Shown here: positions 9,409 to 63,230 of the stretch, in pieces | How the letters are laid out: every line of letters begins with the position of its first letter | Numbering within the stretch: position 1 is the first letter of the stretch | Assembly: GCA_039621445.1 (NCBI GenBank) | Contig: CP154954.1 | Span: forward strand, 31,706,012-31,770,011 | Source of the DNA: Euglena gracilis | Lineage: Eukaryota | Length of the DNA stretch: 64,000 nucleotides | Direction of reading: 5' to 3' | The notes under the pieces: model-generated | Database searches by the model: none | What the model saw: the letters and a program-made list of their open reading frames with translations, nothing else | Told to the model about the DNA's origin: nothing | Position numbers and translations under genes: made by a program

Positions 9409-9917
9409 TGAAAAACCTTCTTGGTTGGAAATTTCTTTGGATCCTCGGCCTCGGCTGTTTTTTGAGGGGGCTGCCGGCCTTCGAAGTCAAAATCATCAAG
9501 TTTTGCTTTATTTTTTGCTCTTGAGCTTTTCAAAATCAAACTTCATTCATTTTTTGTCAAATTCAGGTTCTTCCAAGCACAATCAATTGATGTTTTTTTG
9601 TGGTCTTCACCAGTACATTGTATGGACAATGAACCCTGTGTGTGAGATAGGGTTTGATACTGCGGAGTTCGATTGGGGCTGTGCTTAACTAGGAATTTGC
9701 TCTGTTCCTACCGACCGGAAAAATTCGGCCGACTGATCCAGGAAATCTCGCCAGTTAAGGCCGGCAAGGCCAAAATAGAGGTTCAGGCTTCAAAGGCCTA
9801 CCAACAGAACCTTTTCCAATCTTTTAATTCGACTGAAATCCAAAAAAGGGAATTTAGGTGATTTTTCAAGCCCCAGGACTAATTTAGGTCAAATTGTTGG
9901 TTAAGGACCCCTTAACA
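9409..9917 (-). repeat. Gypsy 3' LTR
   Basis: TG..CA ends; PPT immediately internal; homologous to the 5' LTR but visibly diverged, including a short indel near GGGTTTGATA. Confidence 0.87.
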
Positions 9918-10851: not shown

Positions 10852-12080
10852 TCAAATTTGCCTCCTCGGCGTAAACAAACAATTCTCGGGCGTAACGATG
10901 GAAAAAATGCCCGATGGGTTCCCAAGGTAATCCCATTCATCCCAACCCTTCCATTTCACAAGAAATTGCCATTGTCCATTTGCACCTTTTCCATGTGAAA
11001 TAATTTTTTCCACAACATATTCTCCGGGGGTAGCTTCTACGTCCTCGGTTTCGCTTTGGCAAAAATTCAATGGTAGGGTTTGTCCAACGAATTTGTCTTC
11101 CGCATGCAATTTCAATTGTGTGATGTGCACGCTTTGCATTACACCAGGTTTAACCTCGATCTGGTATGAACCTTGACCCAAACGTCGTTTAACCTCACAA
11201 GGACCCAACCAACGCCTTTTCAAATTTGCTTGCAAATTGGATGGACACAAACACCAAACTTTCTGCCCAATGTCCAAAATTGGTTTTTCAGCCCTTTGAG
11301 AATTCAAATCCTCAAAACGTTGTAAATGAAGGGAGTTTAATTTTTCAGCAATTTTTGAATCCAAGTCGGACATTATTTTGGAAAAATCTGAAGCTTCCTC
11401 CGCTTCGCGAGGAATGGGAAAAGGAAAACCAGCCGATGGCATGCTTCGTGCAAAAACAATTTCATAGAGGGATAAGTCACTTGGCCCAGGGATGTTACGA
11501 AATTTCCTCCTCACCAATGGCAAAATTTCAACCCACTTTGTGTCCATCTCGTCGCAAACTTTCCGAAGCCATGTTTTGAACTCCTTTCCTTGCACCTGCG
11601 CCCTACGGTTCGCTTGATGGTGATACGATTGCTCCTTTGCGCTACGTATTCCCATGCAACCGCACATCGTGAGCCACCATGCCCCTGAATATCGGAGGCC
11701 TTGGTCACTCGGGATGACAGTTTGCAAGCCAAATAAATCCAACCACCGATTAAACATTTCCTTAGCCACCGCCTTAGCAGTACACTCTTTTCTCCTATGT
11801 GGTGTTGCTATTGTCCAACCCCTTAGGCGATCTACAAATTTCAGACGGGGCATATTAAAGAGGTCGATCGAAACACTTGACCCCAAAAATGGTGGTATGA
11901 TGGTGGGACGCAAAGGCCCCTTCAAATAAAAACGTGGGGGGCTGTGCGCTTGACAAATTTCGCTCGTTTTAGAAACCAACAAAGGTATTTCTTTTGCCCC
12001 CACCAAGGGTGAAAAATGAAAATGTTTTTTCTAGCCTTTCCCCACAAACGTGTCCCATGTGGGCGTGGTGCTCCCGGACA
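10852..12080 (-). pseudogene. pol: Integrase with C-terminal chromodomain
   Basis: HHAHMGH...EICQ zinc-finger remnant; SIDLF and SDQG acidic motifs; WLGPCEV (GPY/F-like); chromodomain YVVEKIISHGKGANGQWQFLVKWKGW continuing as ITWEP after a frameshift. Confidence 0.9.
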
Positions 12081-12509
12081 AAAGGTCCAGTTATACTGGC
12101 GGGTACACACAAAAGTCCTTGGAAAAATAGTCGGTTGTCCAAAATTTGAAAATTTTCAGGCCAATTTTCCGAATGCGGTTTATGTACCTCCTCCTAAATA
12201 TCGTTAAAATACGCACACCGTGCATACAAAGTGGACACATCCCGGAGCATAACAGCTTTCTTGGACAAATTTTCGTCCTCCCCCCCTTGATTTTCTGGGC
12301 TATCAAGGGGAACTTGCTGCCCGGGAAGGTTTTTCGTCTCCCCCCCTTCCTCCACTTCATTGCCCGTGGTATCCACGAGGGAGATGATTTTTTCCAACAC
12401 CGAAATCTTCCTGGAAAAATCAAAATCAACAACTTCACCGTTTTTGTGCAAGCGAACAAACATGCAAGCTCGTTCCATTTTTTTCTCGTTTTCCAAAATT
12501 TCAGCCCTT

Positions 12510-13871
12510 TACCTTTCATCCTCCTCCGACCCATGCCATGAAACGTCCGCAAAACTTTGTGATGCGGGGTAAGCCAACCTTGTCATACAATTTGCGGGTA
12601 GCTGTTGCTTACCGGGTATATACGCTACGTTTAGCAAAAATTTGCTGAGTTTTTGGTGCCACCGTGCCCTTCGGCTTGCCACCCTGCCCATTTTCGACGG
12701 CCGGATGCGACCACATATGCCTCCTTATCACGAATATCCCAGGTTTTTTCTTGGGGGGGGGTCAGTTTCCGTGACACGAATGCCACGGGAACCGTTTTCC
12801 CTTCCATGGAATTTTCCTTGCTTAATTCCACCTCACCTACGGGAAGTTGTTCCAACACCGCACCAATGGACCTACCCGATGCATCCACATTCAAAATAAA
12901 AGGTCGGTCGGGGTCAACAACTTGTAACGACAATCCCTTAACCACCACTTTTTTTTGTTTCCTCAAAAGATCTCCTACTTTCATCGTCCCACTTAACCGG
13001 GACTTTGGAACCGGCCTTGCCATCCCCACGACCAACCCGAAGTTTGACTTGAAGGGGGGCTGCCAACTCAGAAAAATTTTCAATGTAGGAACAATAATGG
13101 TTGGCAAAATCACAAAACGCACGAAGACCGGTTGTAGTTTGGGGTAGATCCCGTTTTTCCACGGCCAAAAATTTGCCGGGGGAAGGTTTTCTCAGGCCTT
13201 CTTTCAAAGTGTGGCCCAAAAACTCAACCTCCTTTTGGAAAAATTTGCACTTCGAAAATCTGGCTACCCATTGTTTTTTCACGAAGTAAGTCCAAAATGG
13301 TGCGAATTTCAAAATCGTGTCTTCTCAAAAGTTGTTCCGTACCCAAAATTTCTTGGGGGGTAGCAATGAGAATATCGTCGATATAACCATCGGCGATTTC
13401 TAGTGCGGGGGCAAGTGTCGCTTCCAAATTCCTTTGACAATATTGCACACCATTTTTCCAACCAGTTACAACCACATTGCACCGATCCTTGGGGGGTGTA
13501 AGTGACGGTAATTTGCCTTGAATCGGGACGGAGGGGGATTTGATGAAAAGCATCCACCAAATCGATTGTTGAAAAAAATTTTTTTTGCCTTGCCCAATCA
13601 AAGGCTCCTCCACCCGGTGTAAATGGTATGCATCCTCCATGCATTGGGAATTCATGTAGCGGGCATGAACCACCCCCCTCCGTCTTTTGTGTAAGGGGGC
13701 TATCGGGGGTACATGCGGTTTTTTCACGGGAAACGAGGGCATACCCCATGGATCCTCACAAGGCTCTACCTTACCTTGCCTTAACCATTCCGTGGTTATT
13801 GCCTTCATTGCATCCAACCTTTCACCCATGAGTTGCATCGGTCTTTGCTTTTTTGGTTGTGTCCCCGGTTT
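12510..13871 (-). pseudogene. pol: Reverse transcriptase and RNase H (frameshifted); N-terminal part continues at 15173-15390 beyond an insertion
   Basis: FSTIDLVDAFHQIPL, GYIDDILIAT, KCKFFQKEVEFLGH, VDASGRSIGAVL, YIPGK. PPVRGPHCEARIF(L)KPGTQP is split by the insertion. Confidence 0.9.
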
Positions 13872-17039: not shown

Positions 17040-20000
17040 CCCGGCCCCCCTAACACGAGAGGGACCCACCCTTGGCCCCTTTTCCTTTTCGTCCTTTGTC
17101 ACCACCCTCGCCTTGGCCATTGAAATTCTGCCACCCTTTTCCTCCAAAACTGCCTTTGCCACCCCCCTTGCCGCGTCCTCCCCACCATTGGGCTTGGGGC
17201 TCAAAATTTTGTGTGGGGGGTCCTTGATTTGCATCCGGCAATTTTGCCTAGCACTTAGCGGCAATATGCCCCAACTTACCACAACGTTCACACGGTGCTT
17301 TGATTACACCTTCATTGCTTTTAGTTGTGGGGGTGGGGGTATGGAGTGGTGCTTCTTCCAATTTTTGTATGGAAACGGGGGTATTCAAAATTTTTACTTT
17401 GTCCCCCCTGTCCTTTTTCGTTTGAAAATTTGCAGGAAAATTCTCATTTTCCGTTCCCGTGGGAACTTCTGTCGCCCTCATCCATTGGGGGGTTTGATTC
17501 TGTTCCGGGGGGGGAACCACGCCGCTTAAATTGAAGGGCTTTCTCCTTTTGCGTGAGCAATTTGTGCATCATTCCCATGATTTCCGTGAGGGGTAGTTGA
17601 AAATCTTTGGGGGAAACTTGCAATTTTTGCCCATTTGACAAATTTCGTCCATTGAGTGAAAGAAGCAAGTTTTTTCTCCCTTGCCGACCCAATCGTCACC
17701 TCAAAATGCGTCCCCAAAAACACTACGGAGACAAAATGTAACATGGCTCCCTCCAACGCACTCACCAAAATTCCTTGCAATTGGTGGGGATCCACCAAGG
17801 GCAAATTTCTTACCTCCACCACGTTAAAAAAAAACTTCCCGGTTCTTATTCCCTGACAATTTCCTCGTTGTAAAGTCTGGGAATATCCCGTCTTAGAACC
17901 CGATGCGCGTCGGCGTCGGTCACATCTTTTGCAAAATTTCTCAACATGAGAAAATCTGTCTCAAAACTTTTCCAATCCTCCCTAGTTAGGTTGCTTTTGC
18001 TTGAGGCGGATTTCTTCCAATTTTTGGCTTGCACAATTTCGTGCCCCACTGCAATTTTTTTTCCCAACAAGTCCCAAGCTTGTTAAAAGTTTGTGATCAT
18101 TCCCGTCCCCCTTAAGAGCCTCAAACGGTCTCATCGGTTTCATTTACGGAGGAAATCAAAAGTGACAAGAGGTCTTGGTCGTCGGTTGGACCTCTGGAAC
18201 GTCTTTGCACATATTCTTTCCATCGAAAGCGAAAATCAGGCCAATCTTCGGTGTGGCCAGAAAAATTTTCGAGTTTTGCCTCTTTTGCCACCATGGCACT
18301 CAAGGGGGATCTAACAAAAATTGGATTTTGGCTTCCAAAATTGGTGCCTCTTCCCCCCCCCCCATCCCCACCTCCACCCCAATGGGCAAAATTTGCACCG
18401 GAACAACAACGGTCGGACATTTTTGGGTTGATTCGACGGGAAAGCCCAACACGTTGATGGTGGGGGGCATATGAAAGGGGTACTTTCTGTACGGGGGGTG
18501 CTTGAACACCGGGGGGACCCACTTGTGCGGGGCCGTGGGAATCCGAATTCTGGGTGTGGGGGGTAAAAACGGGTGTTGGTTGGGTCACAGGAACGTGCAG
18601 AGTGTGGCTTTGCCAACAGGGGGTAGAGCCCACCTTATGGTGCTCCTCCCATTTGTGCAAGACCTCCACTCCGGCATGTTGCCCGAAAAAGCCGCTCCCC
18701 TACCTCCGGGCCTAGGTTGCCCGAGTAGGGAGCGACGGGGGGGGATGTTTTGAAAATATTCTAAAACCAACCCACTCACCTCTCGAGAGGGGATTGAGAG
18801 GGTATTGGTTCCCTTCTACCCAAATAGCCAAAATCCAACCCATAGCTGGTGCTTGGGGTTGCCGTGTTGTTGACCTTTCCGATCCTGTTGAGGCCTCCCG
18901 CACCGCCACCACAGCGGTGGGGGGAAAAGGGCCCCCGGACACCGCGAGAGCGGCGGTGCCGGGGTTGGGGGTCTCCCTCCTCATTGGTGGTGTATTTGGA
19001 TTTTGCCCCCGTGGACCATCCAAATTCATGGCTTGGGAAGGGGGGGAGGCTTGTCCACAGGGACCCCCTGCCCCAAAACCTTGGGAGAAAAATCGTTCAC
19101 CCACGTTTTGCATCTCAAAACGACAATTTTTTTGCTCAAGTCCAAAAATGTGAGCGGAAACACATTTTTGAAAATCCTCAACCCTGGACAAAATGGTACC
19201 AAAGGCTTTTTGACTTGCGTTTTCCAAACCAAAAGCTTGACGTTTCACTCCAAAAAGTTCTTGCCGTTTCTCATTTTCATCACGAGAAATCTTTTGGTGA
19301 ATTTGTGCCAAAATCTGATCTTGGTGCTCAAGTGAGCTTTCCAGGTTTTGAATGCGGGGGGGCAAAGTCCATTTTCTTTTCTGGTCATTCCACCCGCATT
19401 TTTTTGATCAATTTCCAACTCCATTGCGGCAATTTGTCCTATAGCCACTTCTATTTGTTCCTCAAAGTTTTGAATCCTCCCAGAAATTTGGTCAAAAAAC
19501 TTTTAATAAAGTTTCCTTTCATTCTTGACCAACTCCACATGTTTATTTAACATTCCTGAAATGATTTCTTGTCTTCCCTCAAGAAAATTAAGTCTTTCTT
19601 CAATTTTCCAGTATCCGTCCCAAGGATCCGCATCACCCCCCCTCCTCCTCCATTGGCTCGGGGGGGGGGGACTTGTGAATTTTCAGCCGGGGAGCTCTCG
19701 TGCATGGGTGTCCCACTTTCCAAAAATTGAGAATGATCATCACCCCCGCCCGTTTCTTGGGAGGGAATCGGGGAAATTTCAATCTTTGGGGGGACTCCAC
19801 ATCTCTCCAACCCACGGGATTGTGGATTTTCCATGGGCGTGGGAAAATTTTGCCCTTCCAAAACTTGCAATGGGGCAGCCAAGGTTTGAACACCGCCAAT
19901 CATGGGGGGGAAATCACCACCACCGCCAGGGATCCTTGGTTGAGATTGCTGAAGTATGAAAAAAATCTTCTGGTAATTGTCCCCTGAAAATTTTTCTTCC
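17040..20000 (-). pseudogene. gag: gag-like region with CCHC zinc knuckle and Gly/Lys-rich tail (fragmented)
   Basis: CERCGKLGHIAAKC (C-X2-C-X4-H-X4-C, ~17251-17292); LENFSGHTEDWPDFRFRWKEY gag-like block; GKGGGKG tail; lies between PBS and pol. Confidence 0.75.
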
Positions 20001-20581
20001 TTCTTCTTTTTGCAACTCCCCCCTCAAACTGTCAGTAAGTTTGGTAAGGCGACGTAATTCATTTTCCACAGAAAATTCGCCTTGTGTGATTTATGGTTTT
20101 TTTTTGCACTTTTTCCGGCACACACGTCCCAAACCATGAGGAAATTCTTTTTTCCACGAAATAGTGGAAGAGGAAGATTCTGATTCTGCTTCAAATTCTC
20201 GGGGGGGGTCTACTTCTTTTCGGGTTCTTTTCAGGTGGTTTTTCTTCGGGGGGTGTGCAGACATGCAGGCATGGGGGGGGTTGGTTTGCTGTCGTGTGTG
20301 GTGTCCGCTTGGTGATGTTCGCCAGCTGCATCAATACGGTGCCCCCCTCACCAGCTGCAGCTGCCAATAAAAACAATGTTCTTGATTCTTCTGTGTCTTT
20401 TTCTTTTTGATTTTCAAACTTCACCATTGCATCTTCTCCATTTGGGAATGCCATCGATGGCATGAGGGGGCCCATGGGCACCACCTCGGGGGGCCTGATG
20501 GCACCACCCCTTCAACTTCTTGATGTTCTTGCTCTTCTTCTTCTTGGCCAGGCCAAGCCTCCCCCGGGCCTTGGCCAGAGG

Positions 20582-20599
20582 ATCCGGGTAGGACCTCCA
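20582..20599 (-). promoter_or_regulatory. Primer-binding site, probably tRNA-Gln
   Basis: Minus-strand TGGAGGTCCTACCCGGAT directly follows the LTR CA; its complement ...GGTAGGACCT-CCA fits the 3' acceptor arm of eukaryotic tRNA-Gln. Confidence 0.7.
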
Positions 20600-21104
20600 T
20601 GAAAACCCTTTATTGGTTCGAAATTCATTCGGATCATTGGCCTCGGCTGTTTTTTGAGGGGGCTGCCGGCCTTCGAAGTAAAAATCTTCAAGTGTTTCGT
20701 TTTTTTTTTTTGATCTTGAGCTTTCCATATCAACCTTCAAATTGATTTTTTTTGTCAAATTCAGGTTCTTCCAAGCACAAACAATTTATTTTTTGTTTGT
20801 AGTCTTCACCAGTACATTGTATGGACAAAGAACCCTGTGTGTGAGATAGGGTTTGATATTTGGGGCTGTGCTTAACTAGGAATTTGCTCTGTTCCTACCG
20901 ACCGGAAAACTTCGGCCGACTGATCCAGGAAATTTCGCCAGTTAAGGCCGGCAAGGCCAAAATAGGGGTTCATGCTTCAAAGGCCTACCCACAGAACATT
21001 TTCCGAACTTTTAATTCGACTGAAATCCAAAAATGGGAATTTCAGTGATTTTCCAAGCCCCAGGACCAATTTAGGTAAAATTGTTGGTTAAGGACCACTT
21101 AACA
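20600..21104 (-). repeat. Gypsy 5' LTR (505 bp)
   Basis: TG..CA ends; homology to the 3' LTRs starts exactly at TGAAAA; PBS adjacent. Confidence 0.87.
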
Positions 21105-23676
21105 CTGGTTGCCACCTTGGCCTTTGTTCCGGCGATTTTTGGTGATGTAGATGCCTTCATGGCTGGTTGTCCAGTCATGGCCTTTGTTTCCTTGGCCTGT
21201 GCAGTTTTGGCAGCCATAGCTCACAGAATGTGTTCTTTGGATTGTTGTCCCTTGGTCCCAATGGGCGTAGTGGGCTGCTGGCCGTTCTGCCTCTTACGGG
21301 GCCTCCTGACCACTGACTGCCAGGGTCCGTGGCCATCACTTTTGGGCGGTTTGGGTTGTGGAAGTTTCTTTTGGGGCAATTTTCATTTAGTGAAGGGGCG
21401 GCCGCGGTGCATGCCGCGACCCATGCCTTCAGGTTGTCAAGCTGCTGCTGCTGCTGCTGCTCCGTCTTGAAGCTCTCCAGCGCTTCTCGTCTTGCAAATA
21501 GCATCTGCCATTGAAAATTTTCTGAAGCTTCAGCAGTATCTGCTCTGGCGTTCTGCAGAGCGTCTTTTTCCGTATAATTCGAAATGATTGAGGGACTTCT
21601 GCTCTTGTAATGGACAAGGCACTTGGCGTTCCTCTCTGACCATTCGGGCTCCACACTGCGAGATGGTGAGGTCCTGCTTTCCTTGCCGGGTGTTCTGTTC
21701 TGGTGTGTTTGTGCGTATGCGGGGGGTGCTTCTTACTGCTTTTTGTTGCCTGAGTTGGCTGATTCCTAATTCTGCCCTTCGACTACAAGGAGAAATAATT
21801 TTAACTCAACGAGTTCCACACAGTTCACTACAGCGACCTATCAATACAGCGGACGAAGAGCAATCCAGACGATAACGAAAAGCGGAGGAAGAAAATTTTG
21901 ATTTCCTGAAAGATGCAACATACCTGGTGTCCAGCGGCCCGACAGAGCAACAAAGAACCCCTGCGAAGGCAGCAGAAGCTGGAGAAGATGGAGTTCCAGC
22001 AGGCGCCGGAGCAACCCACATGGAACCAAGCTGTCATGCAGCATTACAACGAGTTTCAAGGCAGAAACCTGAAGGGGAGAAGAGTGGAGGAGGAGGAGGA
22101 GGAGCAGGAGCTGGAGACGCTGACGGAGCAGGAGCGGAGCACCAGTCCGTGGCCGTCCCCTCCCCACCTTCCAATTTCCCGGAAAGATTTTAATTCCGTC
22201 AGTTCGACGACGGCCATGGACCCTGGACATTGGTGGCCAGAAAGTCGAGGAGACAAATACACCAGCAGCACACAGCCCAGAGGGAGAGAACTGGGCAGAC
22301 AGGTCTGGAAGACTACCCTCCGGTTTCCACATCGCCACCCCCTCACCCAGGGGGAACGTTCCAAGGGGAAATGGACTGCATCAAGGGCATGACCACCCTT
22401 TTCAACAAGGCTATGACAGCCATTATTATCAAGGGCATGGAGCCCAACTGCAAGGCTATGGAAGCCCGAAGCAAGTGCTGCAAACTTGCTCCAGGGGAAA
22501 GGTTGGTCCAACTTACCCCACAGCTCTCTCAAACATGAACCCCTCAGGAGCTGCCCATTAATGCAGCAAGCAGCCCCCCTTTCGGGGACAGAAGGCCAAT
22601 GGAGGCCATTGTATTCAAAAGCAAGAGGCCAATGGGGGCCAGTGGAGGAATCAAGACGCCAAGGCCAGTGCAGGCCATTTCAATCAAAATCAGGAGGCCA
22701 TTGGGGGCCAATATATGATTCAAGATCACCACATCAACCCTTGGGGGGGAGGCCCAAGATTGGCTGCAACAGGGCCCCCCCAGAAGATAATCAGCCCAGA
22801 CACCCCAGCTTTATATGTACCTCCCACTGCAGACACAGACCTTCCCCCATCATTCAAAAACACGGGGAAAGCCTGTCTTTGGAAAGCCCTATGGCAGGGC
22901 CAGCTGCAGCCCCAGTGATGGGGCAGCCAGGGGGCAGGACCCCAGTGATGGGGCCTGTGGAATCCCCAGACACATTACATCCAGGGGTACCCCCTCATAG
23001 GGCCCTGCGGGCCAGCATTCCTCACTGGATCAAGGCAGGAGCCAGCAGAGAGGTATTAAACCTGATAAGGGAGGGGGTTATGGCAGATCTTCCCCTCCCT
23101 ACCCCCAGATAACCTTAAAAGTTCCCTTCAAAACCCCCCAAGAAATAATGACTGCCCAAAAAAATTCTGACAGAATGCGAATGTGCAGGGGCAACCAGGC
23201 AAATTCCCCCAGAGGAGGCAAAACATTTTGTCCCTTACTTCATCATTTCCAAAAAAAGAGGGGGAAAAGACAAAAGGAAAGACAAATTTCAGGCTGTCGA
23301 CAGTTAAATCTCCATTTCACCCAACAGAAGTTCAGACTGGAGCACATGGGGAACATCTTCCCATATTTAAGAAAAGGTTGGTGTTGTTGAAAAATCGATC
23401 TGAAAGAATCTTATTTACATCTGCAGCTGCACAGCAGATTAGAAAAATATGTTTGCATGCAGCTTGTGGCATTGGACATGTCCCTACGCATTCTGCAATA
23501 AAGCCTGGCGCAAATGTCAGCGCGCGCGCAGGCACACTTTTTTTTGTAAAAAATTCTGGTTGTTTGCTTTGCAGGCAATCAGCGTACAACTTTGTCCATG
23601 TTTACCTCCAAGTCTGGTGCAAATGGGATTGCGTGCAGTGGAAGTTACAAGTTATAATATTTTATGAAGAAAAACT

Positions 23677-24681
23677 GTGAAGAAAAAGGGAGATTTTTTT
23701 GAGAAGCCCAGCCCCAGCAAAAGGGCAAGAGCCCTTTTTACACAAAGTTGTATGAGTGTTGCCCATGGAGAAGGACGTGGCCAAGGTGGCGCTGCGCCGG
23801 AGACCTCAGACTGTGTTATGCATGCCAGAGATGGCCATGGGGGTCATGCCAGGAATGGCCATGGGGGCCATGCCAGGAATGGCCATGGGGGCCATGCCGC
23901 AGATGGCCATTGGGGCCATGGCACGGATGGCCATGGGGGTCATGCCGCAGATGGCCATTGGGGCCATGCTACAGATGGCCATGGGGGCCATGGTGCTGAT
24001 GCACATTCCCGTGCACGCCATCGACGAGTGGTGAAGTTGGATGGTGCTGATGCACCTGATGGCCATGGTGATTGTGGACATTCCCAGGAGTGGCATGCAG
24101 GTGAGGATGGTGATGGTGGTGGTGGCCATGGTGGCCAGAGAGATGCCCAGATGTGGCATGGGGCTGAGGGGGATGCTGCAGATGACCAAGTCCGACATGC
24201 CAGTGGAGTCCATGATGCCCGAGGTGGTGATGCCCCTGGTGGACAAGTGTCGACAGCCCTGAAGAACGACGTGAGGCTGAGGCTGCAGCTGGAGAAGGAC
24301 ATCCCCATCCTGGTGCTGTCGCCGGAGGAGTTGGTGCTGCTGCTGTTCCGAGATGCGGACGTGGCCGGCAACCTCCTCCAGTACGGGCAGCTGGACGTGG
24401 CGATGCTGATCCCCAACGTCAACGAGATGAAGACGAGGAAGATGTGGGAGGACCTCCAGCCCCATGTGACAAAGCGGTATTACTATCAGCCGAAGTGGTT
24501 TTCTGGACCGCTTTACAGCCCAACGGGGTACTGGGCCCTGAAGCTGGACTTGAGGACGAGACGAGAGGAGAGAGATGAGTGGATGGAGATTGAGGAAGAT
24601 GGGACAGCCAGATGGAAGACGCCGTCGTCCCGAAGGAGATGGCGAAGGCGGCTGCAGGCCAAAGGGGTCCAGGGCCAGTGA
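23677..24681 (+). CDS. Internal ORF of the small LTR element: His/Gly repeat N-terminus plus unknown C-terminal domain
   Basis: 334-codon open frame. The N-terminal half derives from a GGCCATGGGGGCCAT minisatellite; the C-terminal half looks protein-like (IP..W..L...YYY..W..WALKLD). Confidence 0.35.
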   Translation: MKKKGDFFEKPSPSKRARALFTQSCMSVAHGEGRGQGGAAPETSDCVMHARDGHGGHARNGHGGHARNGHGGHAADGHWGHGTDGHGGHAADGHWGHATDGHGGHGADAHSRARHRRVVKLDGADAPDGHGDCGHSQEWHAGEDGDGGGGHGGQRDAQMWHGAEGDAADDQVRHASGVHDARGGDAPGGQVSTALKNDVRLRLQLEKDIPILVLSPEELVLLLFRDADVAGNLLQYGQLDVAMLIPNVNEMKTRKMWEDLQPHVTKRYYYQPKWFSGPLYSPTGYWALKLDLRTRREERDEWMEIEEDGTARWKTPSSRRRWRRRLQAKGVQGQ

Positions 24682-25154
24682 GGCTCCTGGAGGATGCCCT
24701 GGCCTGGCATGTACGTGGCTGCAATGTCCACTGCCTGTGCTGGCTCCCTGGTGGGATGCCTCGATGTGGCATGTACGCTGCTGCCATGTCCACAGCCTGT
24801 GCCGGCTCCCTGGTGGGATGCCCCGGTGTGGCATGTGCAATTATGATATAATGGTGGACTGGACCTGCAGACTGAACCCCGAACCCCATCAGAGTGTGCC
24901 CTCGCTTTCTGCTGTCGCCCCCCCCGGCGAAGAGTTGGGTGGTAAGGCGGCGTTCGGGTGAAGAACTCGAGCTTTGGGTGGAAGAGGGATCCGAATTAGA
25001 ATTTGATTTCACAGAGAATTGCGAGAATCGTGATTAAAATGCAATTTTTATTTTGGGAAGATTTGCGAGAATCGTGGTTGTGAATGATTTTCGGGGGTGG
25101 GTGCGAGGAGTGTTGGCTCCAGAGGGATGCCCCACCCGACCTTTTTGAAGGTGG

Positions 25155-25445
25155 AGGGGAGAGTTGGCTCACGAGTTGATGCCCCCCCCCCCTTGGAGAA
25201 GGGTGGAGGGGAGAGATGGCTCACGAGTTGATGCCCCCCCCTGTCCAAGAGAGTGGTGGGGAGAGTTGGCTCACGAGTTGATGCCCCCCCCCCCCCTGTG
25301 CAAGGGAGGTGGGGAGAGATGGCTCACGAGTTGATGCCCCACCCCCCCTGAGAAAGAAGTGGGGAGAGTTGGCTCACGAGGTGATGCCCCCACCACGAGA
25401 CAGAGGTGAGGGAGAGTGGCTCACGAGTTGATGCCCCCCCCCCCC
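25155..25445 (+). repeat. Six ~50-bp units with constant core GGCTCACGAGTTGATGCCCC and variable linkers
   Basis: Directly visible; degenerate units near 25110 and 25490; repeated at ~37555-37840. Confidence 0.85.
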
Positions 25446-26907
25446 TGTTTGAGATTCGGTGGCACCCAGTTCGCCAAGTTGGGGTTGGGAGAGTTCGGCT
25501 CTTTCGAGATGCCCCCCCCCCCCTGTGAAGGACAAGTCCAATGGCCAAGGGAGTCAAGTATGGAGACTGGGTCTCCTTTTGGGAAGGGGAGTGTGGCATT
25601 GGACATGTCCCTACGCATTCTGCAATTAAGCCTGGCGCAAATGTCAGCGCGCGCGCAGGCACACTTTTTTTTGTAAAAAATTCTGGTTGTTTGCTTTGCA
25701 GGCAATCAGCGTACAACTTTGTCCATGTTTACCTCCAAGTCTGGTGCAAATGGGATTGCGTGCAGTGGAAGTTACAAGTTATAAGATTTTATGAAGAAAT
25801 ACACTGTGAAGAAAAAGGGAGATTTTTTTGAGAAGCCCAGCCCCAGCAAAAGGGCAAGAGCCCTTTTTACAAGCTGGGGGGAGAAACCTGGCAGTTTCAA
25901 GCTGCATGCTTTGGCACAAGCAGCCTGACACAGAAATTTATGACTCTCATGAGAGTCTGGGAAGGAAAATGGAGAAAGGAAGGAAAGGTAGTTTTCATCT
26001 ACCTGGACGAAATTTTGCTGTTAGCCCCCAGCAAAAAGACAGCAGCCCAACATTTGGCAGAAATGAGAACAGACCTTTAACTGGCAGGTTTCAGATTAAA
26101 CCTCCCCAAATCCTGTCTGGAACCCACACAGGAGATAAAACATCTGGGCCAGTGGATCAATTTGAAAAATGGAAAACTGGCAATTCCTCAGGAAAAACTC
26201 AAATCCTTGAGAAGGGAGCTAGGCAAAGTGCTCACAACACAAAAAATGAGCTGCAGAAACCTCAGTTCTATTGTGGGGCAAATCAGAAGCTATTTAGTAT
26301 CAATGCCATTTCTACGAATTCTTACAGACCAACTTTGCAAAATGGTGGAGCTACACACCAAGTGGGGTTGGGACCACACCCTGACCATTCCACAAGGGGT
26401 CAAGGATCAGATTGTGGAAATAAAGGAAATTTTACAGCCAGGTGTGGGCAGGGCATTTCAATCCCATGCTTCACAGGAACTGTTCTCAGACAGCAGCACC
26501 TGGCAGTGGGGGGGGGGGGGCTGGACAAAAAGTCAGGTCAAAAAACCAAAATTTCTGGAGGGACCTGCATGTCCCTCACATCAATAAAAAATAATTGATG
26601 TCTGCAGTGGAAACTGTAAAGGCTTTAGCAAAACCAAAACAAACCATTGTTCTTCATGTGGACAACCAGGTGGCAGTAAGTTATTTAACAAAATGAGGAG
26701 GCAAAAAGCCATACCTAAACTCCATCCTAAAACCCCTTCTGTACCATTGCCAAGAAAAGCAAATCAATTTGCAGGTGGTTTGGGTTCCCACCCAGGAGCA
26801 ATTGGTAGGCTCCCTGACCAGGGAGCAAAAAGATCCAGGGGATTATACCGTAAACATAAACATTTTTCACCAGATTCTGAAATTTATCAAAACACATCAC
26901 CCCAAAG

Positions 26908-27290
26908 GTGGACATGTTTTGCACACCCAGCAATAAAAAATTCCCCAAGTTCATTTGCCGATACCCCCACCAAGGGGCTTTGTTGGTGGATGCTCTGAAG
27001 GCAGATTTAAGGGGTCTCCCCCCAGTTTATGCACACCCTCCCTGGAGCATCATCCCTCAGTGGGTTCAGAGATTAATGCTAAACCCAGACCTGGTTTGTC
27101 TGTTGATCGTACCCCACTGGGCTTCGACATCATGGTGGCGCCAACTAATGACAGTCAGGCAGCCAGGCAGCAAAGTTTTGCTGGTACCCCCCCAGTGTGG
27201 TCTGTTCACCAACTGCTGGGGGGAGGAGATGCCCCTCCCAAGGTGGAATTTGGCCTGCTTGATTGTGTCAGGCAAATATTACAATCCCGG
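26908..27290 (+). pseudogene. DIRS Dam-like (N6-adenine) methyltransferase domain
   Basis: VDMFCTPSNKKFPKF..DAL..YAHPPWSIIP..LIVPHWASTSWW, the typical DIRS MT pattern (NPPW-like, here HPPW). Confidence 0.8.
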
Positions 27291-28145
27291 GAAGTTTCGA
27301 TGTCCAGTATCGACACTTACATAAAAAATCTTGGAAAATTCAAAAGATATGACTCAGCCTTCAGGGCATTGGTGGGCCAATTGTTGCACAAAAGGGGTGC
27401 CCCTGCAGGACTGCACAGTCCGCAGTATGGCTGAGGCCATCCTTGATCTTGCTGTTCACAGCATCAACACTGCACAAATGCATATGCAGCAGCTTTGTTA
27501 CTCCCAGGGTTTGGGTCATTGAGATTTTCCCCTCTTCTGGCTCCATTGAAAAGAAAGTGGAATTCCAATGTCTGCAAGTATGCCCATTTTTGGGACCCCA
27601 CTGACTTCCTAGAAAACATCCTCAGGGAGTCAAAACCCCTCTCAGAGCTATCTGTGAAAGAGCTCAGAAGCAGACTCGTCATCTGTTGGAGGCTTCTGGC
27701 CCTCCACAGGGGGGTGGATCTAGCCAGAACCCAGCGAAAAATCAGTTTCGTGGGAGAAAAAATTTTCATTTTATTGCACAGGAAAGGTTGGCAATTCCCC
27801 AGGTGGGAGGAAGTTTTGAATTTGCCACCCCCCCCCCCTCATAAGCCCCTGGCATTTATTGAAAGAGCACGTGGAAAGGACAGACTGCATGGTTGAGCAC
27901 AAAAAATAATTTGTTATGGTCTTTGGACGGTAAAAGACCTTTGGCATCAGAGAGAGTGAATTCCCTTACCAAATAAATTCTGCAAGAGGGGGGGGGTGGA
28001 CACCACCCACTGGAAACCCCACAGCACCAGAGGGGCTGGGGTTTTATGGTGGGAAAATGCTGGTTTGAAAGTGGAGGAAGTCTAGCAATTGGGTAGGTGG
28101 AAAATTTTTGGGGCCTTCCAAGCTCATTTTTTGAGACTCGGTGTC
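27290..28145 (+). pseudogene. DIRS tyrosine recombinase (frameshifts, stops)
   Basis: LALHRGVDLAR (catalytic R), KPHSTRGAG (HxxR), LGRW, AHFLRLG (expected catalytic Y reads F). Confidence 0.8.
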
Positions 28146-28923
28146 GTATCCAAAATTCAAAAACTTATGGCCCAAAGGGGGGTGCACAATACCTCACCAT
28201 CTCGCAGTGCGGAGCCCGAATGATCTCGGACTCCCACGACAGAGGAAGGGGAAGGAAGGGACCAAGAGGGCGAAGCACAAGAAGATGGCGAGCCCAACCC
28301 CCCCACCCAAAAAATCAGTGGAAAAAGAAAAACCTTCCAACCAGAAAGGGGACCCCCGACCAAGCAGCCCCAACCGCCCACCCAGAAACACACCAGGAAG
28401 AGACAGCCTTCCTCATCGAGGGGGGGGGGGGCACCAAGCGACCGTGTGAGAAGGGGGGGGGGGCGGGGCCACGACGGTTCAGCTTCGCCAACGAACACGC
28501 GCACCCCCCCCCCACACACGCACCCCCCCACACACGCACACCCCCCCACACACAGGACGCACGCACGCACACACGTACGCACGCACACGCACGCGCGCGC
28601 CATATTGGTCCAGGGGAACACACTCACCAATGACCAGTCAATGGGACGAGAATCTAATTTCTCCAATAATCTCTAAGAGTTACAATTTCGTGCTGACTCT
28701 TTGGGATTGTTTGCGGCATGAATTTGTGGGGATTCTTGCACACTCACGTCCACAGCACACATACAAAAACATACAACGCGCAACGCGCAATCCACATATT
28801 CCAAGCTCTGAAAAATGCGGCGTTAAAACATCCAACAATGAAATTTCCTCATTATAGACGAAGGAATTCACAGCTATGAAATGGACCTGGGAGTCTGCAG
28901 AAACGTTATGGCGGGGGGGGGGG

Positions 28924-29024
28924 TCAGATGGACAGCAGAAGGCCTAAGCGCCCCTTCCGGACGTGCTGGATCGGGTCGCATATCTGGACGACGGTCGGGT
29001 CGGGCTGGCCGGCCTTCATCACCC
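28924..29024 (-). pseudogene. Duplicated orphan copy of the host gene's terminal exon
   Basis: Matches 42383-42483 (VMKAGQPDPTVVQICDPIQHVRKGRLGLLLSI*). Confidence 0.75.
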
Positions 29025-30114
29025 GCCGCCACGGCCCCTTTCGGTGGGCAATGCCCCAGTCCAGCGGGGGGGGGGGGTCACCTCCGCTCCAAGAAACAGC
29101 AACGACTCACCTTTTTCATCAAAACCAGCCATCTGCCACCCAGCCGTCAGCCACCTTGGGAGCCAAGGATTGTGGCCAATTCTTTTCATGGTGAGCCATT
29201 GTTGCCGAGTCACTGGTGGCTTTTTGTGCCCCCCCCCCCCCTCCCCCGGCTCATGGGTCCAGCCCCAAAATCAGTCAATCACTCTGGAACAAAAAGTCAC
29301 CCCCCCTCCCCGGGTCGGCCAATGACAAACCACGGAAGCTCCTTTTGGGCCTTGAATTTGGGTCCCCAAAAATCCGAAAATATTTGTCGTTTTTTGTTCA
29401 AAATTATTCTTCACAATGTTTTGTCATCACTGGGCTTCTTTTTAACTCAGAACACCCACCCCCGGGGTGGGTGGGACCAGGGCCGGACCCCCCCAGGCAG
29501 GGCTGTATGGGAAAGGCCTGGTGGGGGGGGGTCGACCCCCCAACCCACCATGGCACCCGCACAAAGAAAATTCCTTCGGCGCCAAAGGAAAATTTTGACT
29601 TGTCGGCGCGTCCGGAAATACGGGAAGTGGTGGTGGGGGGTCGGACCCACCACCAGCATGGGGTGGGGGGGGGGTGGTCAGGGAAGAACGGGAAGACAGG
29701 GTGGGGGGGGGTGGTCGACCCCCACCCGGGAGGTGGGGGGGGGGGTGGGGGGTCGACCCCCCCAACCCACCACAGCATTTTCACCAATTTTGGGAAAACA
29801 GGGATGTCGGCCGGGGAAATTTTTGAAAAATTTCTTGAAAAACGAACCCAAAATACATGATTTTTTTGATGGAAAAACACATTTTTTTTTCACAGAAAAC
29901 CCTCAAAAAATTTTAGGTTTAAAAATTGGTAGGGTTGGTAGGTTGCGAAGGTCAAAAAAATTGGACCACATTTTGGAACATTCAAATTTTACTGACATTT
30001 TTTCTCTTGGATTTTTTGCTGTACAGCCCTACCTCCGTGCCTGGTTCTCATCAATTTCAAAAAAAACATCACAATTTTTTATGGAGTTTCTCTTTCCATG
30101 GTTCCAGCGTTTCT

Positions 30115-33100
30115 ACACTACGGAGACAAAATGTAACATGGCTCCCTCCAACGCACTCACCAAAATTCCTTGCAATTGGTGGGGATCCACCAAGGGCAAA
30201 TTTCTTACCTCCACCACGTTAAAAAAAAACTTCCCGGTTCTTATTCCCTGACAATTTCCTCGTTGTAAAGTCTGGGAATATCCCGTCTTAGAACCCGATG
30301 CGCGTCGGCGTCGGTCACATCTTTTGCAAAATTTCTCAACATGAGAAAATCTGTCTCAAAACTTTTCCAATCCTCCCTAGTTAGGTTGCTTTTGCTTGAG
30401 GCGGATTTCTTCCAATTTTTGGCTTGCACAATTTCGTGCCCCACTGCAATTTTTTTTCCCAACAAGTCCCAAGCTTGTTAAAAGTTTGTGATCATTCCCG
30501 TCCCCCTTAAGAGCCTCAAACGGTCTCATCGGTTTCATTTACGGAGGAAATCAAAAGTGACAAGAGGTCTTGGTCGTCGGTTGGACCTCTGGAACGTCTT
30601 TGCACATATTCTTTCCATCGAAAGCGAAAATCAGGCCAATCTTCGGTGTGGCCAGAAAAATTTTCGAGTTTTGCCTCTTTTGCCACCATGGCACTCAAGG
30701 GGGATCTAACAAAAATTGGATTTTGGCTTCCAAAATTGGTGCCTCTTCCCCCCCCCCCCATCCCCACCTCCACCCCAATGGGCAAAATTTGCACCGGAAC
30801 AACAACGGTCGGACATTTTTGGGTTGATTCGACGGGAAAGCCCAACACGTTGATGGTGGGGGGCATATGAAAGGGGTACTTTCTGTACGGGGGGTGCTTG
30901 AACACCGGGGGGACCCACTTGTGCGGGGCCGTGGGAATCCGAATTCTGGGTGTGGGGGGTAAAAACGGGTGTTGGTTGGGTCACAGGAACGTGCAGAGTG
31001 TGGCTTTGCCAACAGGGGGTAGAGCCCACCTTATGGTGCTCCTCCCATTTGTGCAAGACCTCCACTCCGGCATGTTGCCCGAAAAAGCCGCTCCCCTACC
31101 TCCGGGCCTAGGTTGCCCGAGTAGGGAGCGACGGGGGGGGATGTTTTGAAAATATTCTAAAACCAACCCACTCACCTCTCGAGAGGGGATTGAGAGGGTA
31201 TTGGTTCCCTTCTACCCAAATAGCCAAAATCCAACCCATAGCTGGTGCTTGGGGTTGCCGTGTTGTTGACCTTTCCGATCCTGTTGAGGCCTCCCGCACC
31301 GCCACCACAGCGGTGGGGGGAAAAGGGCCCCCGGACACCGCGAGAGCGGCGGTGCCGGGGTTGGGGGTCTCCCTCCTCATTGGTGGTGTATTTGGATTTT
31401 GCCCCCGTGGACCATCCAAATTCATGGCTTGGGAAGGGGGGGAGGCTTGTCCACAGGGACCCCCTGCCCCAAAACCTTGGGAGAAAAATCGTTCACCCAC
31501 GTTTTGCATCTCAAAACGACAATTTTTTTGCTCAAGTCCAAAAATGTGAGCGGAAACACATTTTTGAAAATCCTCAACCCTGGACAAAATGGTACCAAAG
31601 GCTTTTTGACTTGCGTTTTCCAAACCAAAAGCTTGACGTTTCACTCCAAAAAGTTCTTGCCGTTTCTCATTTTCATCACGAGAAATCTTTTGGTGAATTT
31701 GTGCCAAAATCTGATCTTGGTGCTCAACTGAGCTTTCCAGGTTTTGAATGCGGGGGGGCAAAGTCCATTTTCTTTTCTGGTCATTCCACCCGCATTTTTT
31801 TGATCAATTTCCAACTCCATTGCGGCAATTTGTCCTATAGCCACTTCTATTTGTTCCTCAAAGTTTTGAATCCTCCCAGAAATTTGGTCAAAAAACTTTT
31901 AATAAAGTTTCCTTTCATTCTTGACCAACTCCACATGTTTATTTAACATTCCTGAAATGATTTCTTGTCTTCCCTCAAGAAAATTAAGTCTTTCTTCAAT
32001 TTTCCAGTATCCGTCCCAAGGATCCGCATCACCGCCCCTCCTCCTCCATTGGCTCGGGGGGGGGGGGACTTGTGAATTTTCAGCCGGGGAGCTCTCGTGC
32101 ATGGGTGTCCCACTTTCCAAAAATTGAGAATGATCATCACCCCCGCCCGTTTCTTGGGAGGGAATCGGGGAAATTTCAATCTTTGGGGGGACTCCACATC
32201 TCTCCAACCCACGGGATTGTGGATTTTCCATGGGCGTGGGAAAATTTTGCCCTTCCAAAACTTGCAATGGGGCAGCCAAGGTTTGAACACCGCCAATCAT
32301 GGGGGGGAAATCACCACCACCGCCAGGGATCCTTGGTTGAGATTGCTGAAGTATGAAAAAAATCTTCTGGTAATTGTCCCCTGAAAATTTTTCTTCCTTC
32401 TTCTTTTTGCAACTCCCCCCTCAAACTGTCAGTAAGTTTGGTAAGGCGACGTAATTCATTTTCCACAGAAAATTCGCCTTGTGTGATTTATGGTTTTTTT
32501 GCACTTTTTCCGGCACACACGTCCCAAACCATGAGGAAATTCTTTTTTCCACGAAATAGTGGAAGAGGAAGATTCTGATTCTGCTTCAAATTCTCGGGGG
32601 GGGTCTACTTCTTTTCGGGTTCTTTTCAGGTGGTTTTTCTTCGGGGGGTGTGCAGACATGCAGGCATGGGGGGGGTTGGTTTGCTGTCGTGTGTGGTGTC
32701 CGCTTGGTGATGTTCGCCAGCTGCATCAATACGGTGCCCCCCTCACCAGCTGCAGCTGCCAATAAAAACAATGTTCTTGATTCTTCTGTGTCTTTTTCTT
32801 TTTGATTTTCAAACTTCACCATTGCATCTTCTCCGTTTGGGAATGCCATCGATGGCATGAGGGGGCCCATGGGCACCACCTCGGGGGGCCTGATGGCACC
32901 ACCCCTTCAACTTCTTGATGTTCTTGCTCTTCTTCTTCTTGGCCAGGCCAAGCCTCCCCCGGGCCTTGGCCAGAGGATCCGGGTAGGACCTCCATGAAAA
33001 CCCTTTATTGGTTCGAAATTTATTCGGATCATTGGCCTCGGCTGTTTTTTGAGGGGGCTGCCGGCCTTCGAAGTAAAAATCTTCAAGTGTTTCGTTTTTT

Positions 33101-33498
33101 TTTTTGATCTTGAGCTTTCCATATCAACCTTCAAATTGATTTTTTTTGTCAAATTCAGGTTCTTCCAAGCACAAACAATTTATTTTTTGTTTGTAGTCTT
33201 CACCAGTACATTGTATGGACAAAGAACCCTGTGTGTGAGATAGGGTTTGATATTTGGGGCTGTGCTTAACTAGGAATTTGCTCTGTTCCTACCGACCGGA
33301 AAACTTCGGCCGACTGATCCAGGAAATTTCGCCAGTTAAGGCCGGCAAGGCCAAAATAGGGGTTCATGCTTCAAAGGCCTACCCACAGAACCTTTTCCGA
33401 ACTTTTAATTCGACTGAAATCCAAAAATGGGAATTTCAGTGATTTTCCAAGCCCCAGGACCAATTTAGGTAAAATTGTTGGTTAAGGACCACTTAACA
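30115..33498 (-). mobile_element. Duplicated 5' portion of the Gypsy element (gag, PBS 32977-32994, LTR 32995-33498)
   Basis: Copy of 17720-21104. Confidence 0.9.
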
Positions 33499-34034
33499 CT
33501 GGTTGCCACCTTGGCCTTTGTTCCGGCGATTTTTGGTGATGTAGATGCCTTCATGGCTGGTTGTCCAGTCATGGCCTTTGTTTCCTTGGCCTGTGCGGTT
33601 TTGGCGGCCATAGCTCACAGAATGTGTTCTTTGGATTGTTGTCCCTTGGTCCCAATGGGCGTAGTGGGCTGCTGGCCGTTCTGCCTCTTACGGGGCCTCC
33701 TGACCACTGACTGCCAGGGTCCGTGGCCATCACTTTTGGGCGGTTTGGGTTGTGGAAGTTTCTTTTGGGGCAATTTTCATTTAGTGAAGGGGCGGCCGCG
33801 GTGCATGCCGCGACCCATGCCTTCAGGTTGTCAAGCTGCTGCTGCTGCTGCTGCTCCGTCTTGAAGCTCTCCAGCGCTTCTCGTCTTGCAAATAGCATCT
33901 GCCATTGAAAATTTTCTGAAGCTTCAGCAGTATCTGCTCTGGCGTTCTGCAGAGCGTCTTTTTCCGTATAATTCGAAATGATTGAGGGACTTCTGCTCTT
34001 GTAATGGACAAGGCACTTGGCGTTCCTCTCTGAC

Positions 34035-37000
34035 CATTCGGGCTCCACACTGCGAGATGGTGAGGTCCTGCTTTCCTTGCCGGGTGTTCTGTTCTGGTGT
34101 GTTTGTGCGTATGCGGGGGGTGCTTCTTACTGCTTTTTGTTGCCTGAGTTGGCTGATTCCTAATTCTGCCCTTCGACTACAAGGAGAAATAATTTTAACT
34201 CAACGAGTTCCACACAGTTCACTACAGCGACCTATCAATACAGCGGACGAAGAGCAATCCAGACGATAACGAAAAGCGGAGGAAGAAATTTTGATTTCCT
34301 GAAAGATGCAACATACCTGGTGTCCAGCGGCCCGACAGAGCAACAAAGAACCCCTGCGAAGGCAGCAGAAGCTGGAGAAGATGGAGTTCCAGCAGGCGCC
34401 GGAGCAACCCACATGGAACCAAGCTGTCATGCAGCATTACAACGAGTTTCAAGGCAGAAACCTGAAGGGGAGAAGAGTGGAGGAGGAGGAGGAGGAGCAG
34501 GAGCTGGAGACGCTGACGGAGCAGGAGCGGAGCACCAGTCCGTGGCCGTCCCCTCCCCACCTTCCAATTTCCCGGAAAGATTTTAATTCCGTCAGTTCGA
34601 CGACGGCCATGGACCCTGGACATTGGTGGCCAGAAAGTCGAGGAGACAAATACACCAGCAGCACACAGCCCAGAGGGAGAGAACTGGGCAGACAGGTCTG
34701 GAAGACTACCCTCCGGTTTCCACATCGCCACCCCCTCACCCAGGGGGAACGTTCCAAGGGGAAATGGACTGCATCAAGGGCATGACCACCCTTTTCAACA
34801 AGGCTATGACAGCCATTATTATCAAGGGCATGGAGCCCAACTGCAAGGCTATGGAAGCCCGAAGCAAGTGCTGCAAACTTGCTCCAGGGGAAAGGTTGGT
34901 CCAACTTACCCCACAGCTCTCTCAAACATGAACCCCTCAGGAGCTGCCCATTAATGCAGCAAGCAGCCCCCCTTTCGGGGACAGAAGGCCAATGGAGGCC
35001 ATTGTATTCAAAAGCACGAGGCCAATGGGGGCCAGTGGAGGAATCAAGACGCCAAGGCCAGTGCAGGCCATTTCAATCAAAATCAGGAGGCCATTGGGGG
35101 CCAATATATGATTCAAGATCACCACATCAACCCTTGGGGGGGAGGCCCAAGATTGGCTGCAACAGGGCCCCCACAGAAGATAATCAGCCCAGACACCCCA
35201 GCTTTATATGTACCTCCCACTGCAGACACAGACCTTCCCCCATCATTCAAAAACACGGGGAAAGCCTGTCTTTGGAAAGCCCTATGGCAGGGCCAGCTGC
35301 AGCCCCAGTGATGGGGCAGCCAGGGGGCAGGACCCCAGTGATGGGGCCTGTGGAATCCCCAGACACATTACACCCAGGGGTACCCCCTCATAGGGCCCTG
35401 CGGGCCAGCATTCCTCACTGGATCAAGGCAGGAGCCAGCAGAGAGGTATTAAACCTGATAAGGGAGGGGGTTATGGCAGATCTTCCCCTCCCTACCCCCA
35501 GATAACCTTAAAAGTTCCCTTCAAAACCCCCCAAGAAATAATGACTGCCCAAAAAAATTCTGACAGAATGCGAATGTGCAGGGGCAACCAGGCAAATTCC
35601 CCCAGAGGAGGCAAAACATTTTGTCCCTTACTTCATCATTTCCAAAAAAAGAGGGGGAAAAGACAAAAGGAAAGACAAATTTCGGGCTGTCGACAGTTAA
35701 ATCTCCATTTCACCCAACAGAAGTTCAGACTGGAGCACATGGGGAACATCTTCCCATATTTAAGAAAAGGTTGGTGTTGTTGAAAAATCGATCTGAAAGA
35801 ATCTTATTTACATCTGCAGCTGCACAGCAGATTAGAAAAATATGTTTGCATGCAGCTTGTGGCATTGGACATGTCCCTACGCATTCTGCAATAAAGCCTG
35901 GCGCAAATGTCAGCGCGCGCGCAGGCACACTTTTTTTTGTAAAAAATTCTGGTTGTTTGCTTTGCAGGCAATCAGCGTACAACTTTGTCCATGTTTACCT
36001 CCAAGTCTGGTGCAAATGGGATTGCGTGCAGTGGAAGTTACAAGTTATAATATTTTATGAAGAAATAAACTGTGAAGAAAAAGGGAGATTTTTTTGAGAA
36101 GCCCAGCCCCAGCAAAAGGGCAAGAGCCCTTTTTACACAAAGTTGTATGAGTGTTGCCCATGGAGAAGGACGTGGCCAAGGTGGCGCTGCGCCGGAGACC
36201 TCAGACTGTGTTATGCATGCCAGAGATGGCCATGGGGGTCATGCCAGGAATGGCCATGGGGGCCATGCCAGGAATGGCCATGGGGGCCATGCCGCAGATG
36301 GCCATTGGGGCCATGGCACGGATGGCCATGGGGGTCATGCCGCAGATGGCCATTGGGGCCATGCTACAGATGGCCATGGGGGCCATGGTGCTGATGCACA
36401 TTCCCGTGCACGCCATCGACGAGTGGTGAAGTTGGATGGTGCTGATGCACCTGATGGCCATGGTGATTGTGGACATTCCCAGGAGTGGCATGCAGGTGAG
36501 GATGGTGATGGTGGTGGTGGCCATGGTGGCCAGAGAGATGCCCAGATGTGGCATGGGGCTGAGGGGGATGCTGCAGATGACCAAGTCCGACATGCCAGTG
36601 GAGTCCATGATGCCCGAGGTGGTGATGCCCCTGGTGGACAAGTGTCGACAGCCCTGAAGAACGACGTGAGGCTGAGGCTGCAGCTGGAGAAGGACATCCC
36701 CATCCTGGTGCTGTCGCCGGAGGAGTTGGTGCTGCTGCTGTTCCGAGATGCGGACGTGGCCGGCAACCTCCTCCAGTACGGGCAGCTGGACGTGGCGATG
36801 CTGATCCCCAACGTCAACGAGATGAAGACGAGGAAGATGTGGGAGGACCTCCAGCCCCATGTGACAAAGCGGTATTACTATCAGCCGAAGTGGTTTTCTG
36901 GACCGCTTTACAGCCCAACGGGGTACTGGGCCCTGAAGCTGGACTTGAGGACGAGACGAGAGGAGAGAGATGAGTGGATGGAGATTGAGGAAGATGGGAC

Positions 37001-42382: not shown

Positions 42383-63230
<20,848 letters not shown>

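Follow-up and report, generated by a model that had tools for sequence, protein, structure and literature searches.

The stretch analysed here, called the window throughout, comprises 64,000 nucleotides (nt) of Euglena gracilis DNA (contig CP154954.1, positions 31,706,012 to 31,770,011 of the forward strand). It contains a small non-autonomous long terminal repeat (LTR) element of 2,407 base pairs (bp) at positions 23465-25871, which was delimited by sequence reading and a repeat search of 22800-26500. A preliminary description of this DNA had proposed that the element lacks a tRNA-type primer-binding site (PBS) and primes reverse transcription from its own RNA, like the fission-yeast element Tf1. 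Our analysis indicates that Tf1-type self-priming, in which minus-strand DNA synthesis starts without a tRNA, is the best-supported mechanism and probably the correct one. This conclusion rests on the sequence of one insertion event. The features of the element, together with its second copy, are given below.

23461-23464, plus strand: 5′ target-site duplication AGCT (sequence reading), repeated 3′ of the 3′ LTR.
23465-23742, plus strand: 5′ LTR of 278 nt, TG..CA (repeat search), 98.2% identical to the 3′ LTR.
23537-23556, plus strand: A/T-rich, TATA-like stretch suggested by sequence reading, 30-48 nt upstream of the putative self-primer.
23585-23595, plus strand: putative self-primer TACAACTTTGT at LTR positions 121-131, the presumed start of the R (repeated) region, identical in all four LTRs of the window.
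23719-23738, plus strand: perfect 8-bp hairpin AAAAGGGC/GCCCTTTT with a 4-nt loop in the U5 (unique 5′) region (inverted-repeat search), kept in both the minimum free energy (MFE) and the centroid folds.
23743-23752, plus strand: putative PBS CAAAGTTGTA, adjoining the LTR-terminal CA (complementarity search and chance tests); the pairing also takes in A23742.
23752-24681, plus strand: the sole long sense open reading frame (ORF), 309 amino acids (aa), from ORF translation.
23797-24007, plus strand: 24-bp tandem repeats within the ORF (repeat search).
25135-25523, plus strand: seven tandem repeats of ~47-53 bp (one spacing of 78), each with a C-run at its end, in the 3′ non-coding part (repeat search).
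25581-25591, plus strand: polypurine tract GGGAAGGGGAG, directly 5′ of the 3′ LTR (sequence reading).
25592-25871, plus strand: 3′ LTR of 280 nt (repeat search), with a second copy of the 11-mer at 25712-25722.
25872-25875, plus strand: 3′ target-site duplication AGCT (sequence reading).
35858-38267, plus strand: a second copy of the element, complete and with the same flanks (blastn), inside a 12.4-kb segmental duplication.

The hallmarks of an LTR element are present, namely direct LTRs with TG..CA ends, a duplicated target site and, just 5′ of the 3′ LTR, a polypurine tract. Both LTRs begin with TGTGG and end with TTTTTACA. Blastn and alignment show that they differ by three substitutions and one 2-nt indel. 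With AGCT intact on both sides, the earlier statement of near-identical LTRs and a young insertion holds, in the sense of fairly young. The interior between the LTRs is 1,849 nt long and holds one long sense ORF and two tandem-repeat blocks. No gag, protease, reverse transcriptase (RT), RNase H or integrase is found there in a Pfam search with the 309-aa ORF. The small non-autonomous element of the preliminary description is thus a real, fairly young LTR retrotransposon of the integrase type.

The flanks of the element belong to a degenerate DIRS-like retroelement, in which the small element is nested. This host element shows the RT motif YLDEILL near 26000 in a reading of the DNA, followed by an RNase H-like region in the ORF translations and a weak Dam-like Pfam match at 26881-27324. 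Contigs of public runs with an uninterrupted host element match up to 23461/23462 and then pass straight into the sequence 3′ of the 3′ LTR (16 and 15 contigs in run X1, four in X5 and one in X15). These uninterrupted copies confirm the insertion and its flanks. A contig joint from 25591 to 23465, seen in X1 and X15, corresponds to the junction of the polypurine tract and the 3′ LTR. The host element (23300-23460) is far commoner in the public runs than the nested element, with a summed contig depth in X1 of ~130,000-665,000 versus ~5,000-45,000. Most of its copies read GT at the site of the CT in the AGCT found here.

Four copies of the LTR are present in the window. Two of them belong to the second copy of the element, which lies within a segmental duplication of ~12.4 kb (17720-30113 versus 30115-43575, 99.3-99.7% identity) comprising the DIRS-like host and the nested LTR element. 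Positions 17720-28491 and 30115-40888 are 99.7% identical over 10,780 columns, and the second copy of the duplication has ~1.06 kb of extra sequence between 40888 and 41950. The window therefore records one insertion event, and the second element copy is not independent evidence. A sensitive blastn search of the window revealed only this duplicated copy of the LTR or the interior.

No tRNA-type PBS is found at offset 0-5 from the 5′ LTR, since the first TGG 3′ of it, at 23766-23768, lies 23 nt downstream. The absence reported in the preliminary description is thus correct. LTR bases 23585-23595 and ACAAAGTTGTA (23742-23752) are exact reverse complements, and a pattern search confirms this earlier observation. 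With up to one mismatch allowed, ACAAAGTTGTA has six occurrences in the window, all six of them exact, where 1.31 are expected. Two are found on the plus strand at 23742 and 36137, just 3′ of each 5′ LTR. The other four are on the minus strand at 23585, 25712, 35978 and 38108, one inside each of the four LTRs. The described extension of the duplex to 13 bp is also present, formed by the pair C23583-G23754 and the G:U pair G23584-T23753. This G:U pair would be a Watson-Crick pair if 23753 were C (ACG and not ATG), and a CpG-to-TpG change at 23753 could have shortened an originally perfect 13-bp complement. A looser inverted repeat of 22 nt (23574-23595 and 23742-23763) is 77% complementary with a 3 × 3 internal loop. 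One detail needs correction. The 11-nt site had been placed just 3′ of the LTR, and the complement does lie at the LTR end, but its first base A23742 is still part of the LTR. This leaves a PBS proper of 10 nt (23743-23752), starting at offset 0.

In a survey of plant LTR elements, a self-primer is defined by complementarity to the 5′ LTR over at least 10 bp, beginning 0-5 bp 3′ of that LTR (Neumann et al. 2019, PMC6317226). In the small element the complement measures 10 nt from offset 0, or 11 nt if the last base of the LTR is counted. Descriptions of Tf1 and its relatives give an LTR end of CA, a PBS directly after it, an 11-nt primer and an RNase H cut between bases 11 and 12 (PMC7175516, PMC10085805).

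How often such a complement arises by chance was estimated in two ways. Among 20,000 dinucleotide shuffles of the LTR, 11 gave a complement of at least 10 nt at offset 0-5. Mock LTR ends placed at other positions of the repeat-rich window gave at least 11 nt at 278 of 58,652 positions (0.47%) and at least 10 nt at 592 (1.0%). A chance origin of the complementarity is unlikely. These numbers bear on a first alternative, in which the complementarity is accidental and the primer is an internal tRNA fragment (a half-tRNA, as in the copia/Osser type) or another small host RNA that binds just 3′ of the LTR. The shuffle rate of 5.5e-4 speaks against it, while the 0.47-1.0% of mock positions shows that such complements are not negligible in a window so rich in repeats. 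The reverse complement of 23751-23756 is the characteristic hexamer of the Met tRNA anticodon loop, which would suit a half-tRNA. However, the 5 nt on each side of this hexamer pair at only one of five positions, so that an anticodon stem is impossible, and a site based on the hexamer would start 8 nt 3′ of the LTR, beyond the usual distance. No tRNA gene is found in the window, and Rfam gives no tRNA-like match in 23465-23830 on either strand at E up to 10, which is a weak negative. Half-tRNA priming as such is known; the plant survey lists it for 2% of elements, besides self-priming for 12% (Tcn1 and TAR lineages) and an absent PBS for 6% (PMC6317226). Taken together, we regard priming by a half-tRNA or small RNA as unlikely, and self-priming is preferred.

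Following the Tf1 model, self-priming in the small element would proceed as follows. Its RNA would start in the 5′ LTR, at or slightly upstream of 23585, and would fold back so that 23585-23595 pairs with the 10-11 nt adjoining the LTR (23742/3-23752). The RNase H of a partner element would cut after this duplex, and the short 5′ RNA would serve as the primer. Upon plus-strand synthesis the primer would be copied, and the PBS would be reset to the exact primer complement in each replication cycle. Such a reset would explain a perfect Watson-Crick stretch of exactly this length. The partner would supply the RT, the RNase H and the integrase.

The preliminary description had put the RNA start near 23583-23585. 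The A/T-rich stretch 30-48 nt upstream and the location of the 11-mer 121 nt into the LTR make a border of U3 (unique 3′) and R at this point plausible. A start far from 23585 had been named beforehand as a refutation, which is too strict, because an upstream start still permits self-priming with a primer generated by RNase H. If RNase H forms the 3′ end of the primer, starts at 23585 or farther upstream would all be compatible, and starts downstream of 23595 would not. The public runs consist of assembled contigs, which give neither RNA starts, RNA ends nor strand. One contig of 210 nt from a leaf-litter metatranscriptome (X20) covers 23535-23742 and stops at the LTR end. It was rejected as a record of RNA ends, and its two limits are read as assembly branch points at a T-run and at the LTR boundary.

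When the RNA is folded from 23585, the 11-bp primer/PBS duplex and the 8-bp U5 hairpin are retained in the MFE as well as in the centroid structure. The hairpin, which also persists in the folds of the longer stretch 23574-23800, ends at a distance of 4 nt from the LTR end and 5 nt from the PBS proper (23743). It is a possible analogue of the U5 inverted-repeat (U5-IR) stem-loop.

Several observations weigh against self-priming. The fold from 23585 is not more stable than shuffled sequences (z −0.26; 79 of 200 shuffles as stable), and it depends on the chosen boundaries, as the MFE structure of 23574-23800 pairs 23580-23612 with 23765-23797 instead. For Tf1, a ‘pretzel’ structure of three duplexes is described as needed (PMC10085805). 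The two flanking duplexes of this type are not supported in the small element, for which fractions of 0.76, 0.78 and 0.88 of 1,000 shuffles are at least as stable. The pairing begins with A23742, still within the LTR as its terminal base, and a correct LTR end would need a primer 3′ end at 23594. A second TATA-like motif, at 23653-23660, could direct transcription to begin downstream of the 11-mer, near 23685. The four LTRs and the two PBS copies of the window all stem from a single insertion. Finally, the sole chromovirus in the window was considered as the matching autonomous partner and rejected, since it has neither the LTR nor the primer site in common with the small element. What stands of the original self-priming proposal is the absence of a tRNA-type PBS, a complementarity beyond chance and the agreement with the published definition of a self-primer, while the Tf1-like flanking duplexes do no better than shuffles.

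In a second alternative, the pairing would be real and selected, but for a long-range structure of the 5′ leader acting in packaging, dimerisation or translation control, with priming elsewhere or by other means. Retroviral U5-leader stems are a precedent for such a role. The ATG of the ORF at 23752 forms the edge of the duplex, the imperfect complement reaches 22 nt, which is more than an 11-nt primer needs, and the LTR segment has the alternative partner 23765-23797 in a fold of z −2.25. Against this, the duplex starts exactly at the place required of a PBS and no other PBS candidate is found within 23 nt. Its perfect Watson-Crick part is 11 nt long, as in Tf1 (PMC7175516). A leader structure in place of priming is accordingly quite improbable in our view, and we retain self-priming as the more probable function of the duplex.

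Public runs show that the element has many relatives. In X1, 2,424 contigs match it at 80-100% likeness, a count that includes 165 nt of host flank: 452 at 99% or more, 424 at 95-99%, 865 at 90-95% and 683 below 90%. The family is multicopy and diverse in these runs. One X5 contig under a different organism label (‘organism B’, record 22, 23574-23821) spans both 11-mers and contains one other letter and two gaps, which match differences listed elsewhere in the LTR. Among the 40 differences listed of 284, none falls at 23585-23595 or 23742-23752, and no weight is drawn from this. Within the 5′ region, summed depth in X1 peaks in the two bins that hold the 11-mer and the PBS; such depth cannot rank the parts of the element and nothing is drawn from it either. 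Two substitutions, 23500 A (within 23498-23503) and 23658 T, are private to this 5′ LTR, as all contigs read the letter of the 3′ LTR there; one of the two creates AATAAA. Exact-pattern scans for family copies gave no match in viral_contigs, metagenome_contigs or genome_contigs. A related-locus search of metagenome_contigs with the C-terminal 146 aa of the ORF gave 599 pattern matches with none confirmed, and protein homologue searches with the translations of 23668-24678 and 23668-24000 found no matches.

The family also argues against a third alternative, a dead relic whose original PBS is lost and whose post-LTR sequence is functionless. Such a relic would fit the heavily rearranged surroundings, which consist of repeats only, and the ORF without gag or pol. 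In contrast, the LTRs are 98.2% identical, the target-site duplication and the polypurine tract are intact, the family is multicopy and diverse (the X1 contigs counted above, host flank included), and the same LTR-PBS junction occurs in the X5 contig of the other organism label. We therefore consider a relic highly improbable.

The product of the ORF shows a likeness to a DIRS protein. It consists of His/Gly-rich repeats of 8 residues followed by a conserved domain of 150 aa (24229-24678) with an Arg-rich tail. No Pfam family was matched by the 309-aa ORF. Its C-terminal 150 aa have real relatives in Logan/ENA contigs, with eight matches in a representative library, one of 94% and seven of 32-47% identity, and a profile search adds P0009, P0010 and P0011. 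P0011 is a protein of 359 aa with a Pfam Dam domain, in which the motifs of the ORF family follow the NPPF motif; the ORF domain itself has no NPPF motif. AlphaFold prediction of the domain with the alignment of its relatives reaches a predicted local distance difference test score (pLDDT) of 78, versus an unusable 39 with the single sequence. Foldseek with this model found no match in the PDB at E ≤ 0.001, and its weak top rows are mostly N6-adenine methyltransferases. The ORF does not encode a gag; its product looks like the C-terminal half of a DIRS-type Dam-like ‘methyltransferase’ domain that carries an Arg-rich tail.

An autonomous Tf1/sushi-type partner with the same LTR had been expected, and the window does not provide it. 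Its sole chromovirus is a degenerate copy at 4900-13815 on the minus strand, built of two tandem units of 4,461 nt with 99% identity. It has the RT motif YIDDILI, and Pfam matches RT_RNaseH_2 as well as, in its integrase, Chromo and weakly SH3_Tf2-1. Each unit begins within RT, directly after the LTR and a leader of ~80 nt. The chromovirus LTR is ~509 nt long, with further copies at 20600-21106 and 32995-33500. A gag-like ORF at 18121-18699 seemingly belongs to the chromovirus, with the matching 5′ LTR at 20600-21106. Similarity to the small element is seen at the end of its polypurine tract (GGGGAG|TG) and at that of its LTR (TTTTTCA), and the LTR is otherwise unrelated in blastn. Its post-LTR sequence differs as well, with a complement to its own LTR of at most 8 nt, and one LTR copy has TGG directly after CA. 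With a different LTR and no self-complement of at least 9 nt, the chromovirus is neither a demonstrated partner nor a self-primer.

The remainder of the window holds further repeats. Pfam searches of 79 translated ORFs returned retroelement domains only and no cellular genes in the window, and no Rfam family reaches its gathering score there. A further pair of repeats, 2345-2765 and 4015-4436, was examined as LTRs and rejected, as no LTR hallmarks were seen on reading. Two blocks of ~162-nt tandem repeats (51234-52157 and 54371-55463) are 82-88% alike and lie 3.1 kb apart. A long (CA)n microsatellite is found at ~59085-59440 in a G+C-rich stretch, where the repeat search gave 8-nt periods.

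Sequence-based predictions of self-priming already exist for fungi, for vertebrates and for some lineages of plants, and the small element is probably a further case of this known mechanism. To our knowledge, experimental proof has so far been obtained only for Tf1 of fission yeast. Among the papers searched, we found none linking self-priming retrotransposons with excavates. If confirmed, the present case would add another host lineage and a small non-autonomous element to the range of tRNA-independent self-priming; its interest would rise beyond this only with an unusual host lineage or partner. The two halves of the duplex are contained in a stretch of 170 nt, which would make the multicopy family a compact natural test case for co-variation, with no need of genetics. 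A bolder reading sees here a self-priming lineage that belongs neither to the Tf1/sushi chromoviruses nor to the TAR copia elements of plants, in a protist group without an earlier report, carried by a chimeric element with the C-terminal half of a DIRS Dam-like domain. We hold this as a whole to be doubtful. If true, a self-priming lineage in protists would imply that tRNA-free priming arose independently or spread widely by horizontal transfer, and the chimeric carrier would imply a traffic of protein domains between LTR and tyrosine-recombinase (DIRS) retroelement classes.

The small element can be compared with several known systems. Tf1 has a target-site duplication of 5 bp, while that of the small element is 4 bp. 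Tf1/Tf2 of Schizosaccharomyces pombe and the other members of the Tf1/sushi group (Tj1, Tosmo, Tcry1, sushi-ichi and Tcn1) share with it the absence of a tRNA PBS, the CA end with the PBS at once after it, a complement of ~11 nt in the 5′ LTR and a stem-loop adjoining the PBS (PMC7175516, PMC10085805, PMC4600332). The differences are that the small element has no pol and therefore cannot be placed in the RT/integrase tree, that no chromodomain partner with its LTR is found in the window, and that the two extra ‘pretzel’ duplexes of Tf1 are unsupported in it. The plant Tcn1 clade of Ty3/gypsy and the TAR lineage of Ty1/copia, which are predicted to self-prime, likewise have a complement of at least 10 bp at 0-5 bp. 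They are autonomous and classified by their polyprotein, whereas the small element is non-autonomous, 2.4 kb long and located inside a DIRS-like element (PMC6317226). Terminal-repeat retrotransposons in miniature (TRIM) and large retrotransposon derivatives (LARD) resemble it in their short LTRs, a short interior without RT or integrase and their dependence on a partner. They are reported with conventional features (PMC6934838, PMC3532108), while the small element combines a self-complementary primer site with a DIRS-type ORF domain. Skipper of the dictyostelids is an LTR element of a soil protist and likewise has no TGG PBS signature. It has a polypyrimidine stretch and no complement in the left LTR (PMC5006619), whereas the small element does possess this complement.

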